From the IMG/VR virus record IMGVR_UViG_2802429219_000007: a stretch of DNA of 13,878 bases; one strand, given 5' to 3'. Below, piece after piece: positions 4,586-8,253 of this stretch (within the stretch, counting starts at the first letter, position 1; each line of letters begins with the position of its first letter). Both the position numbers and the translations under genes were made by a program. The notes under the pieces are model-generated. The model made no database searches. It was not told where the DNA came from and saw nothing but the letters and a program-made list of their open reading frames with translations. The stretch is from a virus (lineage: Duplodnaviria > Heunggongvirae > Uroviricota > Caudoviricetes).

Positions 4586-4615
4586 AATAATTTGTTTCTA
4601 AACGACTAAAATATG

Positions 4616-4658
4616 GAGGCTCTTATATTTATATGAGCCTCGTTTTATGCTTTTTGTT
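4616..4658 (+). terminator. Intrinsic terminator downstream of emrE
   Basis: 7-bp stem GAGGCTC/GAGCCTC with a 12-nt AT loop, followed by GTTTTATGCTTTTTGTT. Confidence 0.5.
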
Positions 4659-4839
4659 AATGTCTTTATTTTTTATGTATTCTTTTGTGCTTTCAAGATT
4701 ATGGCGTAAGAAAATTGCAATACGATTATTGTTGTATATTCAAGATAATGTGACCTTAATTGTCTTTTTAAATAAAAATTAAACAAAAATTATATCCCAC
4801 CACTAAGGTTTATAAAAGCATACGTTAGCAGGTGTCACC

Positions 4840-6366
4840 ATGAAAAAAGCCATAGCATATATGCGATTTTCATCACCAGGTCAGATGTCTGGTGACTCAT
4901 TAAACCGACAGAGAAGACTTATTGCTGAATGGTTAAAGGTAAATAGTGATTATTATCTTGATACCATAACATATGAAGATTTAGGATTAAGTGCATTCAA
5001 AGGAAAGCATGCACAATCAGGAGCTTTTTCGGAATTTTTAGATGCTATAGAGCATGGTTATATATTGCCAGGAACTACATTGTTAGTTGAAAGTCTGGAC
5101 AGACTTTCAAGAGAAAAAGTCGGTGAAGCGATTGAACGTCTGAAATTGATTTTGAATCACGGTATTGATGTTATAACTCTTTGCGACAATACAGTCTATA
5201 ATATTGACTCTTTGAATGAGCCATATTCATTAATAAAAGCCATACTTATAGCACAAAGGGCAAATGAAGAAAGCGAGATAAAGTCAAGTCGGGTTAAATT
5301 ATCATGGAAGAAAAAACGGCAGGATGCACTGGAATCAGGTACGATTATGACGGCGTCTTGTCCGAGATGGCTCTCCTTAGATGACAAAAGAACGGCTTTT
5401 GTTCCAGACCCCGACAGGGTGAAAACTATTGAGCTAATTTTTAAACTCAGGATGGAAAGGCGCTCATTGAATGCAATAGCCAAGTATTTAAATGATCATG
5501 CTGTAAAGAATTTCTCAGGAAAAGAAAGTGCATGGGGACCTTCTGTAATTGAAAAATTATTAGCGAATAAAGCTCTGATAGGTATATGCGTACCTTCATA
5601 TCGTGCAAGAGGGAAAGGGATAAGTGAAATCGCTGGCTATTATCCCAGAGTCATATCAGATGATTTGTTTTACGCTGTACAGGAAATTCGGTTGGCACCT
5701 TTTGGTATTAGCAATAGTAGCAAGAATCCTATGCTAATAAATCTACTTCGAACAGTTATGAAGTGTGAGGCTTGTGGTAATACCATGATTGTTCATGCGG
5801 TATCTGGAAGTTTGCATGGCTATTATGTTTGTCCGATGAGAAGATTACATCGATGTGACAGGCCATCAATAAAAAGAGATTTGGTTGATTATAATATCAT
5901 TAATGAATTGCTTTTTAATTGTAGCAAAATTCAACCAGTTGAAAACAAGAAAGATGCTAATGAAACTTTAGAGTTAAAAATTATTGAGCTTCAGATGAAA
6001 ATTAATAATTTAATCGTTGCATTGTCTGTCGCGCCTGAAGTTACCGCTATAGCAGAGAAAATAAGACTATTAGATAAGGAATTACGAAGGGCTTCGGTAT
6101 CATTGAAAACTTTGAAGAGTAAAGGTGTAAATTCATTCAGTGATTTTTATGCTATTGACTTAACCAGTAAAAATGGACGAGAGTTATGCCGTACACTTGC
6201 CTATAAAACATTCGAAAAAATCATAATTAATACGGATAATAAAACCTGTGATATCTATTTTATGAATGGCATTGTTTTTAAACACTATCCTTTAATGAAA
6301 GTAATATCCGCCCAGCAGGCGATAAGTGCTCTCAAATATATGGTTGATGGTGAGATTTATTTCTAA
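4840..6366 (+). CDS. ybcK: Large serine recombinase (resolvase/invertase-type N-terminal catalytic domain plus recombinase and zinc-ribbon-like region)
   Basis: 508 aa; N-terminus KKAIAYMRFSSPGQ...SLNRQRRLI with catalytic Ser and Arg residues typical of serine recombinases; Cys-rich cluster (KCEACGN...YYVCP...HRCD); C-terminal coiled coil. Strongly AT-rich by eye. Matches DLP12 YbcK gene order. Confidence 0.8.
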   Translation: MKKAIAYMRFSSPGQMSGDSLNRQRRLIAEWLKVNSDYYLDTITYEDLGLSAFKGKHAQSGAFSEFLDAIEHGYILPGTTLLVESLDRLSREKVGEAIERLKLILNHGIDVITLCDNTVYNIDSLNEPYSLIKAILIAQRANEESEIKSSRVKLSWKKKRQDALESGTIMTASCPRWLSLDDKRTAFVPDPDRVKTIELIFKLRMERRSLNAIAKYLNDHAVKNFSGKESAWGPSVIEKLLANKALIGICVPSYRARGKGISEIAGYYPRVISDDLFYAVQEIRLAPFGISNSSKNPMLINLLRTVMKCEACGNTMIVHAVSGSLHGYYVCPMRRLHRCDRPSIKRDLVDYNIINELLFNCSKIQPVENKKDANETLELKIIELQMKINNLIVALSVAPEVTAIAEKIRLLDKELRRASVSLKTLKSKGVNSFSDFYAIDLTSKNGRELCRTLAYKTFEKIIINTDNKTCDIYFMNGIVFKHYPLMKVISAQQAISALKYMVDGEIYF

Positions 6367-6564
6367 ATAATGATCTCGGATTTTAAGTTATGCTATGGTG
6401 ATAAAGTGCAAGACAGAATTAATTATCTTTGACGAAACTTAATGGGTAATTACTTTGTTTGCTCCCACAAGCGAGTTTTGTACGGCTGTATTGGGGTAGT
6501 AAATGAGCTATACAATCTTAATCATTTGTTAGGTGAGAACTCTTGGTCGCAGATTCAAATACTG

Positions 6565-6614
6565 AAAATACGTGACAAATTATTATGAGCAAAATGGTGT
6601 ATGTCACGTATTTT
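6565..6614. repeat. Perfect 13-bp inverted repeat AAAATACGTGACA / TGTCACGTATTTT separated by 24 bp
   Basis: Arms at 6565-6577 and 6602-6614, about 200 bp downstream of the serine recombinase gene, in an AT-rich intergenic region. Confidence 0.6.
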
Positions 6615-6747
6615 GAATGATAGGTTAAAAAATAACACCGACTTTCGTAGGTATTACTAATAATAAAGCAGAGTTTTTAGATAGTATCAATGTGCTTTGT
6701 GTATATTGTGGCAAATAATTGGGTTGGGGGTACAATTGTGATTGCTT

Positions 6748-6777
6748 TTGCATAAAAATTGCGCCTTTATGCATAAT
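6748..6777 (+). promoter_or_regulatory. Candidate sigma70 promoter for ybcL (TTGCAT, 18 bp, CATAAT) embedded in an 8-bp inverted repeat
   Basis: TTGCAT 6748-6753, CATAAT 6772-6777; inverted repeat TGCATAAA (6749-6756) / TTTATGCA (6766-6773) spans the spacer. ybcL ATG is at 6831. Confidence 0.35.
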
Positions 6778-6830
6778 GAGATAAAGGAATATCAAATAAA
6801 ATAACGATAGGTCATAACAAAGAGGTTTTT

Positions 6831-7382
6831 ATGAAAACACTTATCGTTTCAACTGTATTGGCATTCATAACATTTTCTGCGCAGGCTGCAGCATTTCAGG
6901 TCACTAGTAATGAAATAAAAACAGGAGAGCAACTTACAACGTCTCATGTCTTTTCTGGATTTGGGTGTGAAGGTGGTAATACATCGCCCTCATTAACCTG
7001 GTCTGGTGTTCCTGAAGGTACCAAAAGCTTTGCCGTAACTGTATATGATCCAGATGCACCTACAGGCAGTGGTTGGTGGCATTGGACTGTTGTTAATATT
7101 CCAGCAACAATAACATATTTGCCCGTTGATGCAGGGAGACGTGATGGAACAAAACTGCCGACTGGTGCTGTTCAAGGCCGAAATGATTTTGGCTATGCTG
7201 GGTTTGGTGGCGCATGTCCTCCTAAAGGAGATAAACCACATCATTACCAGTTTAAAGTATGGGCTCTAAAAACTGAAAAGATTCCTGTAGATTCTAACTC
7301 CAGCGGAGCGTTAGTTGGTTATATGCTTAATGCTAATAAAATCGCAACCGCTGAGATAACACCAGTTTATGAGATAAAGTAG
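6831..7382 (+). CDS. ybcL: Periplasmic PEBP/RKIP-family protein (YbcL-like) with signal peptide
   Basis: N-terminal signal peptide MKTLIVSTVLAFITFSAQA; PEBP-like motifs (VYDPDAP, GxHHYQFKVWAL). Position matches DLP12 ybcL. Confidence 0.85.
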   Translation: MKTLIVSTVLAFITFSAQAAAFQVTSNEIKTGEQLTTSHVFSGFGCEGGNTSPSLTWSGVPEGTKSFAVTVYDPDAPTGSGWWHWTVVNIPATITYLPVDAGRRDGTKLPTGAVQGRNDFGYAGFGGACPPKGDKPHHYQFKVWALKTEKIPVDSNSSGALVGYMLNANKIATAEITPVYEIK

Positions 7383-7391
7383 GGTGAGAGT

Positions 7392-8189
7392 ATGCTGGCA
7401 AGAGGTAAGACTAACTTAAAGATCGAAGAAATACGGATGCATAAACATCATGAGATTCATAGGGTTAAGCCTCTTATGCCAGCTTTGTGTCGTATCCGTC
7501 AGGGAAAGAAAGTTATCAATTGGGAGACGCATACTTTAACTGTTGATAATAATCAAATAATATTATTTCCTTGTGGTTATGAATTTTATATTGAGAATTA
7601 TCCTGAAGCAGGGCTTTATCTTGCAGAAATGCTTTACTTACCCATTGATTTAATTGAGAGTTTCCAAAAACTTTATACGGTAACTGATCAAATACGTAAC
7701 AAAACAAGTTTCTTTTTACCTCAGAATCCTGAGTTAATATATTGTTGGGAGCAACTAAAAACATCTGTTTCCCGAGGCTTCTCAACTAAAATTCAGGAGC
7801 ACTTAGCAATGGGCGTTCTACTTTCGTTAGGAGTGAATCATGTTAATCATTTACTTTTATCATATAGTAAACAATCATTGATAAGTCGTTGTTATAACCT
7901 GCTGCTATCCGAACCCGGCACAAAATGGACAGCAAACAAGGTTGCTCGATATCTCTACATTTCTGTTTCTACATTACATCGCCGTCTAGCAAGCGAGGGG
8001 GTAAGTTTCCAAAGTATACTGGACGATGTGAGGTTAAATAATGCGTTGTCTGCTATACAAACGACGGTAAAACCTATAAGCGAGATTGCCAGAGAAAATG
8101 GTTATAAGTGTCCTTCTCGTTTTACTGAAAGATTTCATAATCGTTTTAATATAACACCAAGAGAGATAAGAAAAGCTTCCAGAGAGTAA
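7392..8189 (+). CDS. ybcM: AraC-family transcriptional regulator (YbcM-like)
   Basis: C-terminal AraC-type HTH pair ([45 protein letters not shown]...[33 protein letters not shown]); AT-rich; gene order as in DLP12. Confidence 0.8.
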
Positions 8190-8253
8190 AAGTGTTTTAA
8201 GAAGGAGCAATTCTATCGATTTTGATTTTGGGAAATCAACACGGCATAATTAT

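Follow-up and report, generated by a model that had tools for sequence, protein, structure and literature searches.

A probable composite cargo slot between ren and the nin region of a DLP12-type lambdoid prophage

The window analyzed here is a 13,878-nt stretch of Caudoviricetes DNA (IMG/VR record IMGVR_UViG_2802429219_000007) that carries, between the exclusion gene ren and the leader of the nin region, a low-GC block containing emrE, ylcJ, ybcK, ybcL and ybcM. An initial annotation of positions 4586-8253 described ybcK-ybcL-ybcM as a single nested island with a recombinase of its own. Our analyses point to a different arrangement, which we consider probable, namely that the interval belongs to a moron slot between ren and the nin leader that is a composite of three independent low-GC modules and is exchanged between phages. 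The first module would consist of emrE, which encodes an SMR efflux pump and is followed by a terminator-like hairpin; the second of ylcJ-ybcK, a small open reading frame (ORF) together with an apparently intact large serine recombinase of the phage-integrase type; and the third of the ybcL-ybcM operon, for a predicted periplasmic PEBP protein and an AraC-type regulator that would bind its own promoter. Judging from the pattern of the joints, recombination at linker sequences that related phages have in common may have joined and swapped the modules, and the enzyme encoded in the block would not have been responsible for the assembly. Recombination between phages at shared linkers is the usual origin of lambdoid mosaics. 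In a lysogen, the genes could act as host-benefit cargo, a role suggested by the literature that would comprise efflux, an oxidative-stress regulon and, with the allele of uropathogenic Escherichia coli (UPEC), suppression of neutrophil migration. The features concerned, in window positions, are the following.

3883-4185, forward strand: ren, a Ren-like exclusion protein (phrog_142, 6e-42); the backbone gene that borders the cargo slot on its left
4176-4591, forward strand: emrE module, with a promoter region, a 13-nt dyad (4203-4237) and the emrE coding sequence (4253-4585); GC 0.40
4593-6675, forward strand: ylcJ-ybcK module, an indel relative to an emrE-ybcL-ybcM islet
4616-4641, forward strand: terminator-like hairpin after emrE with a U-rich tract (-14 kcal/mol, z = -3.7; none of 200 shuffles folded as well)
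4633-4782, forward strand: ylcJ, a small ORF for a hydrophobic 49-aa product; named YlcJ in RefSeq relatives
4840-6366, forward strand: ybcK, a 508-aa large serine recombinase with Resolvase, Recombinase and Zn_ribbon_recom domains
6831-7382, forward strand: ybcL, a putatively periplasmic PEBP/RKIP-like protein (PF01161, 7e-42, 143 bits against a cutoff of 24)
7392-8189, forward strand: ybcM, an AraC-family regulator (HTH_18 at residues 185-261, 9.5e-17, 61.5 bits against a cutoff of 33.6)
8221-8283, forward strand: nin-region leader, TTGATT-17-CATAAT followed by a hairpin with a 10-bp stem at 8254-8282; kept in 7 of 7 aligned variants

Composition and joints of the ren-to-nin block

Megablast against 5,426 complete E. 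coli genomes, the set from which all genome counts below are drawn (those of junction types being approximated from identity and coverage classes), identified the window as a DLP12-type lambdoid prophage, with matches of 98-99.9% identity. Its genes run in the order cI-like repressor, cro, ydaT, O, P, ren, emrE, ylcJ, ybcK, ybcL, ybcM, ybcN, ninE, ybcO, rusA, ylcG and Q, followed by accessory and lysis genes. Positions 3972-10253 are 98.7% identical to the sequence of K-12 MG1655, and at the protein level YbcK and YbcM are identical to their K-12 counterparts, with one substitution in YbcL (I94V) and two in EmrE. The interval under study is the b0544-b0546 part of the K-12 DLP12 prophage.

The sharp shift to AT-rich DNA on which the initial annotation was built was borne out by windowed GC and by GC at third codon positions (GC3), and lies far beyond chance. 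GC content was 0.357 across 4586-8253, versus 0.481 across 127-4175 and 0.499 across 8221-9850, and for the low-GC block as a whole it was 0.362 against 0.48-0.50 in the flanks. GC3 was 0.26-0.29 in ybcK, ybcL and ybcM and 0.35 in emrE, compared with 0.44-0.61 in the flanking phage genes. Both composition and codon usage deviate from those of the backbone, as expected of a moron-type slot. A two-breakpoint likelihood segmentation placed breaks at 4145 and 8255, with a log-likelihood gain of 86 units. The right edge of the block had been drawn correctly, near the second of these breaks, and homology to related prophages resumes there at 8220/8221 (8245 in O157). The left edge, which had been set after emrE, was ~410-440 bp too far to the right, the drop in GC starting at the ren stop (4145-4176). 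On this side, homology of the backbone extends to 4149-4176 and stops there, at the stop codon of ren (4183-4185). Because composition and homology both break at the ren stop, emrE (GC 0.417) lies inside the low-GC block. The two features that had been named as its borders, the terminator hairpin of emrE and the stem-loop at 8254-8282, do exist, and the former sits on the ybcK side of the joint at 4592/4593. That joint is real and internal, and separates the emrE module from the ylcJ-ybcK module.

The boundaries of the slot were taken from blastn comparisons of the window with nine related loci. The proposal that the block was acquired horizontally, as cargo, and does not belong to the phage backbone was supported by this comparison, in which otherwise near-identical prophages were found to carry other genes in the slot; flanks of 96-98% identity surround different genes in the same ren-to-ybcN interval. 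EC27 has ren, a YajG-family lipoprotein, a hypothetical protein and ybcN, with homology to the window lost at 4149 and back at 8220/8221, and AUSMDU00014361 has P, P22AR/HEPN proteins and ybcN, with homology lost at 3896 and back at the same right-hand position; DUF4041 is a further alternative cargo. In O157, emrE-ybcK is followed by 335 bp and ybcN (collinear through 6375, resuming at 8245), in phage 4A7 by an esterase gene and ybcN (collinear through 6375, resuming at 8221), and in strain E9 by a P22AR fragment. Positions 4592-6375 are common to the window, O157 and phage 4A7. The content of the interval between ren or P and position 8220 is dispensable, given that EC27, AUSMDU00014361, O157, 4A7, E9 and Eco-15 all differ in it.

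The right joint at 8220 is also used by prophages that lack ybcK. The seven variants that keep the nin leader beyond it include ybcK-less prophages and the islet next to fliE described below. The leader hairpin at 8254-8282 has the form GTCACCGGAG-N9-CTCCGGTGAC (-21.7 kcal/mol, z = -4.3) and no U-tract. Since this stem-loop is conserved in every variant, it belongs to the backbone, and the joint is general for the slot. Together, the TTGATT-17-CATAAT sequence and the hairpin may act in regulation or termination where the nin region begins. On the other side of the exchanged cargo, ~60-80 bp 3' of ybcK can be aligned across cargo types, and beyond this stretch the position of the joint differs by type. 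Such variable joints fit homologous or illegitimate exchange and not a single site-specific crossover. Another lambdoid prophage (locus L023, 3400-6200) has a low-GC gene with a SIR2_2 domain in the same P-to-nin slot.

Separate occurrence of the three modules

The emrE (4176-4591), ylcJ-ybcK (4593-6675) and ybcL-ybcM (~6676-8220) modules each occur separately. The full arrangement was present in ~670 genomes, emrE-ybcK followed by other cargo in ~750, and emrE-ybcL-ybcM without ybcK in ~2,300-2,600. When the segments were counted one by one, that of ybcK was found in 1,427 of the 5,426 genomes, about half of which reached only 6375, i.e., had no ybcL-ybcM after it. The ybcL-ybcM segment was found in 3,258 genomes (666 at an identity of at least 99% and 2,591 at 90-95%) and emrE in 3,693 (1,408 at an identity of at least 95% and 2,282 at 90-95%). 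The spacer at 6431-6675 occurred in 675 genomes, only those with the full arrangement. A census of matches to 3886-8410 in a spread sample returned the full form; emrE-ybcK and a P22AR fragment with a hypothetical protein, an alpha/beta hydrolase or only 335 bp; a trio of the type found next to fliE; and ren followed by unrelated cargo and ybcN.

In all five fliE-linked loci inspected, emrE-ybcL-ybcM lie between fliE and yedK, without ybcK and at 90-92% nucleotide identity; the stretch 4176-4591 is common to the window and this islet at ~92% identity. Local alignment of a fliE-type locus matched the window to 4592 and again from 6676, with 4 nt unaccounted for, from which it follows that ylcJ-ybcK (4593-6675) is a clean indel of ~2,083 bp. 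That the islet is a prophage remnant is suggested by the 186 bp of nin leader, a backbone sequence, that it retains and that reach the ybcN start codon. In VTB97022v, AREA_497 and ST131 it starts no more than 10 nt from the ren stop codon and extends as far as the ybcN start, with remnants of insertion sequence (IS) elements of the IS200/IS605 type next to it; both ends coincide with phage gene boundaries. Synonymous divergence (dS) between prophage and fliE alleles was 0.19-0.38, and the ratio of non-synonymous to synonymous divergence (dN/dS) was 0.02-0.12 for both. The divergence of the two sets of alleles is old, and all genes of the block are under purifying selection (dN/dS 0.02-0.16). 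E. albertii also has emrE-ybcL-ybcM without ybcK, in this case with a P4-type tyrosine integrase directly upstream (locus L028, 5403-8798), and this locus is a third, independent genomic context of the trio. In Plesiomonas, ybcL-ybcM stand alone beside ychF-pth, again without ybcK.

This distribution bears directly on the view put forward in the initial annotation, in which ybcK-ybcL-ybcM form a single island between emrE and the nin region, are mobilized by YbcK and act as one host-interaction module, and which we now regard as very improbable. Such an island would account for the low GC throughout the block, for the intact catalytic residues of YbcK, for the fact that 4592/4593 and 8220/8221 are both real joints, and for the contiguity of the three genes in ~670 genomes and in phage PhiR34_1. 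However, ybcL-ybcM occur without ybcK in ~2,600 genomes and ybcK without ybcL-ybcM in ~750; E. albertii and Plesiomonas likewise have the pair without the recombinase; the right joint serves the cargo of ybcK-less prophages; and the composition break falls at the ren stop and not after emrE. Recombinase and cargo are not co-inherited. Att-type repeats at both ends, which a self-mobilizing island would carry, were not seen either, a comparison of 4150-4200 with 8200-8260 yielding only short matches of chance grade. A precise empty site was found only for the sub-unit 4593-6675, by comparison with the diverged (90%) islet, and no near-identical empty site was found. In addition, no genome with a ybcL-ybcM allele of at least 99% identity lacked ybcK, so that there is no sign of ongoing excision. 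Inversion by YbcK was rejected as well, all sampled full-arrangement genomes aligning with the window as one collinear piece.

The YbcK recombinase and candidate recombination sites

YbcK matched the Pfam families PF00239 (5.5e-19), PF07508 (2.3e-14) and PF13408 (7.9e-08), i.e., the complete domain set of a large serine recombinase, and the integrase family phrog_95 (4e-120). Residues Y7, R9, S11 and Q15 and the D87-R88-L-S90-R91 motif (D87, R88, S90, R91) were invariant in relatives of 29-61% identity, as were the zinc-ribbon cysteines C309, C312, C331 and C339. Between E. coli alleles, the dN/dS of ybcK was 0.07-0.16. In its Resolvase, Recombinase and Zn-ribbon domains and its conserved Ser, Arg and Cys residues, the predicted protein resembles the integrases of phiC31, Bxb1 and TP901-1 and the serine transposases TnpX/TndX. 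It differs from the large serine integrases of phages in that its gene is part of the early-right operon, in phages already equipped with a tyrosine integrase and excisionase. Isolated lambdoid phages carry ybcK, and as 4A7, which is one of them, also has its own tyrosine integrase and excisionase (int/xis), YbcK is a second recombinase in that phage. Assignment as an XisF-type excisase was rejected, the score against the NCBIfam XisF equivalog being 46.9 bits against a cutoff of 375. The only datum on ybcK function offered by the literature is a sabinene-tolerance phenotype (PMC7181518).

Relatives of YbcK were found in a variety of places. In Atlantibacter (59% identity) and Erwinia (52%), the gene is the terminal one of a prophage, with ssrA adjacent in the former and lepA nearby in the latter; in Yersinia (56%), it comes after the tail-fibre genes and a gene for an autotransporter and borders on a P2-like prophage; the Citrobacter relative lies on a plasmid-like element; and those of Pantoea (42%) and of a metagenomic sequence (59%) lie between the replication genes and Q. 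For three relatives of 59-61% identity, nucleotide homology extends only from position -68 relative to the start codon to the stop codon, and their contexts are unrelated, one being in a nin region, another at a prophage end next to ssrA and the third beside umuDC-like genes. One of the three is encoded at locus L023 (7671-10831), where its gene and those for a KGG and a DinI protein lie between direct repeats (181 nt, 86% identical) that correspond to the 5' end of a DUF1367 gene.

Three sequences were considered, as guesses, for the role of att site: the dyad at 4203-4237, a 13-nt direct repeat, and the following palindrome.

6565-6614, no strand assigned: perfect 13-nt inverted repeat (AAAATACGTGACA / TGTCACGTATTTT) with a 24-nt spacer, in an unannotated intergenic stretch; RNA fold -18.7 kcal/mol, z = -4.2

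The palindrome has the size of a serine-recombinase att site, and nothing ties it to YbcK. Its 13-nt arms have no other copy in the window or in the homologue loci, and no comparable palindromes occur near the homologues. The flanks of eight YbcK homologues had nothing in common except ~70 bp upstream within the clade of 59-61% identity. A recombination site next to ybcK was thus sought and set aside, neither the palindrome nor the homologue flanks giving a shared site. The copies of the direct repeat, which match at 12 of 13 positions, lie at 4590-4602 (ATTTGTTTCTAAA), on the emrE-ylcJ joint, and at 6355-6367 (ATTTATTTCTAAA), over the ybcK stop codon. Some phages with ybcK and other cargo show matching changes at both copies.

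These observations can be set against an alternative that we judge unlikely, in which the ylcJ-ybcK unit, perhaps with downstream cargo, is or descends from a serine-recombinase-driven cassette of the early-right/nin slot and other mobile elements, and YbcK itself made the insertion between emrE and ybcL. The clean 2,083-bp indel between emrE and ybcL would fit such an event, and the genes directly after ybcK vary (ybcL-ybcM, an esterase, a P22AR fragment or nothing). Consistent with a cassette are also the restriction of homology among the 59-61% relatives to the -68-to-stop unit in three unrelated contexts, the bracketed recombinase, KGG and DinI genes at L023, the location of the 42% Pantoea relative in the same replication-to-Q slot, the intact catalytic residues with the low dN/dS given above, and the 13-nt direct repeat at the module joints. 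However, no conserved att-like or inverted-repeat sequence was found at the ends of the unit or near its homologues, and the ends of the -68-to-stop unit are not mutual inverted repeats, unlike the attP arms of serine recombinases. Furthermore, the unit always followed emrE in the E. coli loci inspected (a sample of the 1,427 genomes with ybcK), with a maximum of two copies per genome; no empty-site allele with flanks of at least 99% identity was seen; and the 86% repeat at L023 fits recombination between two phages equally well. On balance, the evidence against a recombinase-driven cassette is stronger than the evidence for it. A broader form of the idea, which we find slightly more doubtful still, holds that YbcK-family recombinases define minimal mobile cassettes, consisting of the gene alone or with one to three passengers, which insert in the early-right/nin slot and in other elements; ylcJ-ybcK (4593-6675) would then be one of these cassettes, inserted between emrE and ybcL, and its recombination site would include the palindrome at 6565-6614 or the 13-nt repeat.

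A composite slot exchanged between phages is the reading that we retain, and several points weigh against it. The way in which it would have been assembled is deduced from joint positions, not from direct observation. Between the full form and the fliE-type islet, the 2,083-bp difference is unusually clean, and the sister-clade recombinases are solitary genes in unrelated contexts. The 13-nt repeat occurs at two joints of the ybcK module, and in a post hoc comparison an equally good match was obtained for only 2 of 3,000 pairs of windows drawn at random from the block. Finally, a promoter scan gave 17 matches versus 15.6 expected from shuffles, which is no better than chance. Taken together, the clean indel, the 13-nt repeat and the solitary sister-clade recombinases are compatible with some mobility of the ybcK unit driven by its recombinase. 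As regards possible promoters and terminators of the modules' own, a hairpin and U-tract follow emrE, and a chromatin immunoprecipitation-exonuclease (ChIP-exo) signal of YbcM and RNA polymerase (RNAP) lies upstream of ybcL-ybcM in a K-12 lysogen. YbcK is not the mobilizer of ybcL-ybcM; most likely, ybcK is an accessory gene or a former integrase gene that selection maintains.

Cargo proteins, related systems and neighboring features

Domain searches agreed with the gene content listed in the initial annotation, i.e., a recombinase, a PEBP protein and an AraC regulator. YbcL was placed in the PEBP family by a score of 399.8 bits against the NCBIfam equivalog NF007330 (PRK09818; cutoff of 277). 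The structure in PDB entry 1FUX matches residues 20-183, a chain start at residue 20 fits a cleaved signal peptide, and the N-terminus (MKTLIVSTVLAFITFSAQA/AA) resembles a Sec signal. A periplasmic location of YbcL has been stated, and the UPEC protein suppresses transepithelial migration of neutrophils after its release from the periplasm, whereas laboratory and commensal alleles are inactive through one amino-acid change (PMC4810123). The effect on neutrophil migration that was mentioned for YbcL homologs is right for UPEC alleles; the window carries a K-12-type allele, and it is the laboratory and commensal alleles that are reported to be inactive.

YbcM has the C-terminal double helix-turn-helix domain of the AraC/XylS family, and its gene starts 10 nt past the ybcL stop, as in an operon. 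In K-12, ChIP-exo located 12 YbcM sites, by far the strongest of which (signal/noise of 357, RNAP-bound; 570015-570048 in the supplement) lies upstream of ybcL-ybcM; autoregulation was reported, and deletion of ybcM made survival in H2O2 eight times lower (PMC8464067). The suggestion that regulation of ybcL by YbcM be checked had already been answered in the literature by the position of this strongest site, and ybcL-ybcM is an autoregulated operon. With NC_000913.2 coordinates that we take to be 567538 for emrE and 570116 for ybcL, an offset of 563,285 places the site in the window as follows.

6730-6763, no strand assigned: presumed YbcM-binding site in the ybcL-ybcM promoter region, positioned from K-12 coordinates

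At this position, the site would overlap TACAAT at 6731-6736 and the left arm of an 11-nt palindrome at 6746-6776, and would cover the stretch expected to hold a -35 element for CATAAT at 6772-6777.

In K-12 DLP12, genes b0543-b0546 (emrE, ybcK, ybcL, ybcM) have the same order and the same joints as in the window. The window keeps cI/cro/O/P and an intact ren, which in K-12 are lost or interrupted by IS3, and as cargo between Q and the lysis genes it has genes for a lipocalin, YbgA and a helix-turn-helix protein where K-12 DLP12 has nmpC. Morons, or the hypervariable accessory slots of lambdoid phages, are a concept of Hendrix and colleagues. The genes of the block resemble morons in that they are dispensable, deviate in composition, lie between backbone genes and are swapped in sister phages, and the PHROGs families of emrE and ren belong to the moron category. 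Unlike a typical moron, which is a single unit of promoter, gene and terminator, the slot holds three stacked modules, one of them a recombinase. The fliE-yedK islet, which is present in UPEC, ST131 and many other E. coli and is the source of the neutrophil-suppressing YbcL, has emrE, ybcL and ybcM in the order seen in the window, but lacks ybcK and ylcJ, lies outside an intact prophage and encodes a YbcL with 7 different residues.

The finding is already known in that it concerns named K-12 genes of a long-described cryptic prophage with published function data, and it matters little beyond correct annotation. The structural corrections are that emrE belongs to the foreign block and that this block is a stack of three independently occurring modules. 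About one in two E. coli genomes has the clinically discussed pair ybcL-ybcM in a fliE-linked islet that lacks any recombinase gene, and YbcK should not be read as the mobility gene of the pair.

Among the smaller proteins of the block, EmrE scored 239.6 bits against NCBIfam NF042984 (cutoff of 226), as a full-length SMR protein does, and matched phrog_1395 of the moron category. For ylcJ, profile searches of PADLOC, NCBIfam and PHROGs gave no family match. The PADLOC anti-phage defence models had no match at E <= 0.01 for ren, emrE, ylcJ, ybcK, ybcL or ybcM, and a defence-system reading was dropped because none of these six proteins matched. No Rfam family at gathering score, tRNA or tmRNA was detected in the window.

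Outside the block, positions 1-126 of the window match the 3' end of an IS21-family istB at 95-99% identity, mostly in plasmid copies, and prophage homology begins at 127, so that the left arm of the prophage seems to be cut short by an IS element. A second low-GC patch at 12000-13350 (GC 0.333), with an ORF for a helix-turn-helix-domain protein at 12446-13186 (GC3 0.26) between a YbgA-like gene and essD, looks like another cargo slot, in the Q-to-lysis region. IS3-family elements break emrE in the closest relative of the window and ren in K-12, and both genes are intact in the window, as is rusA, which is frameshifted in the closest relative.

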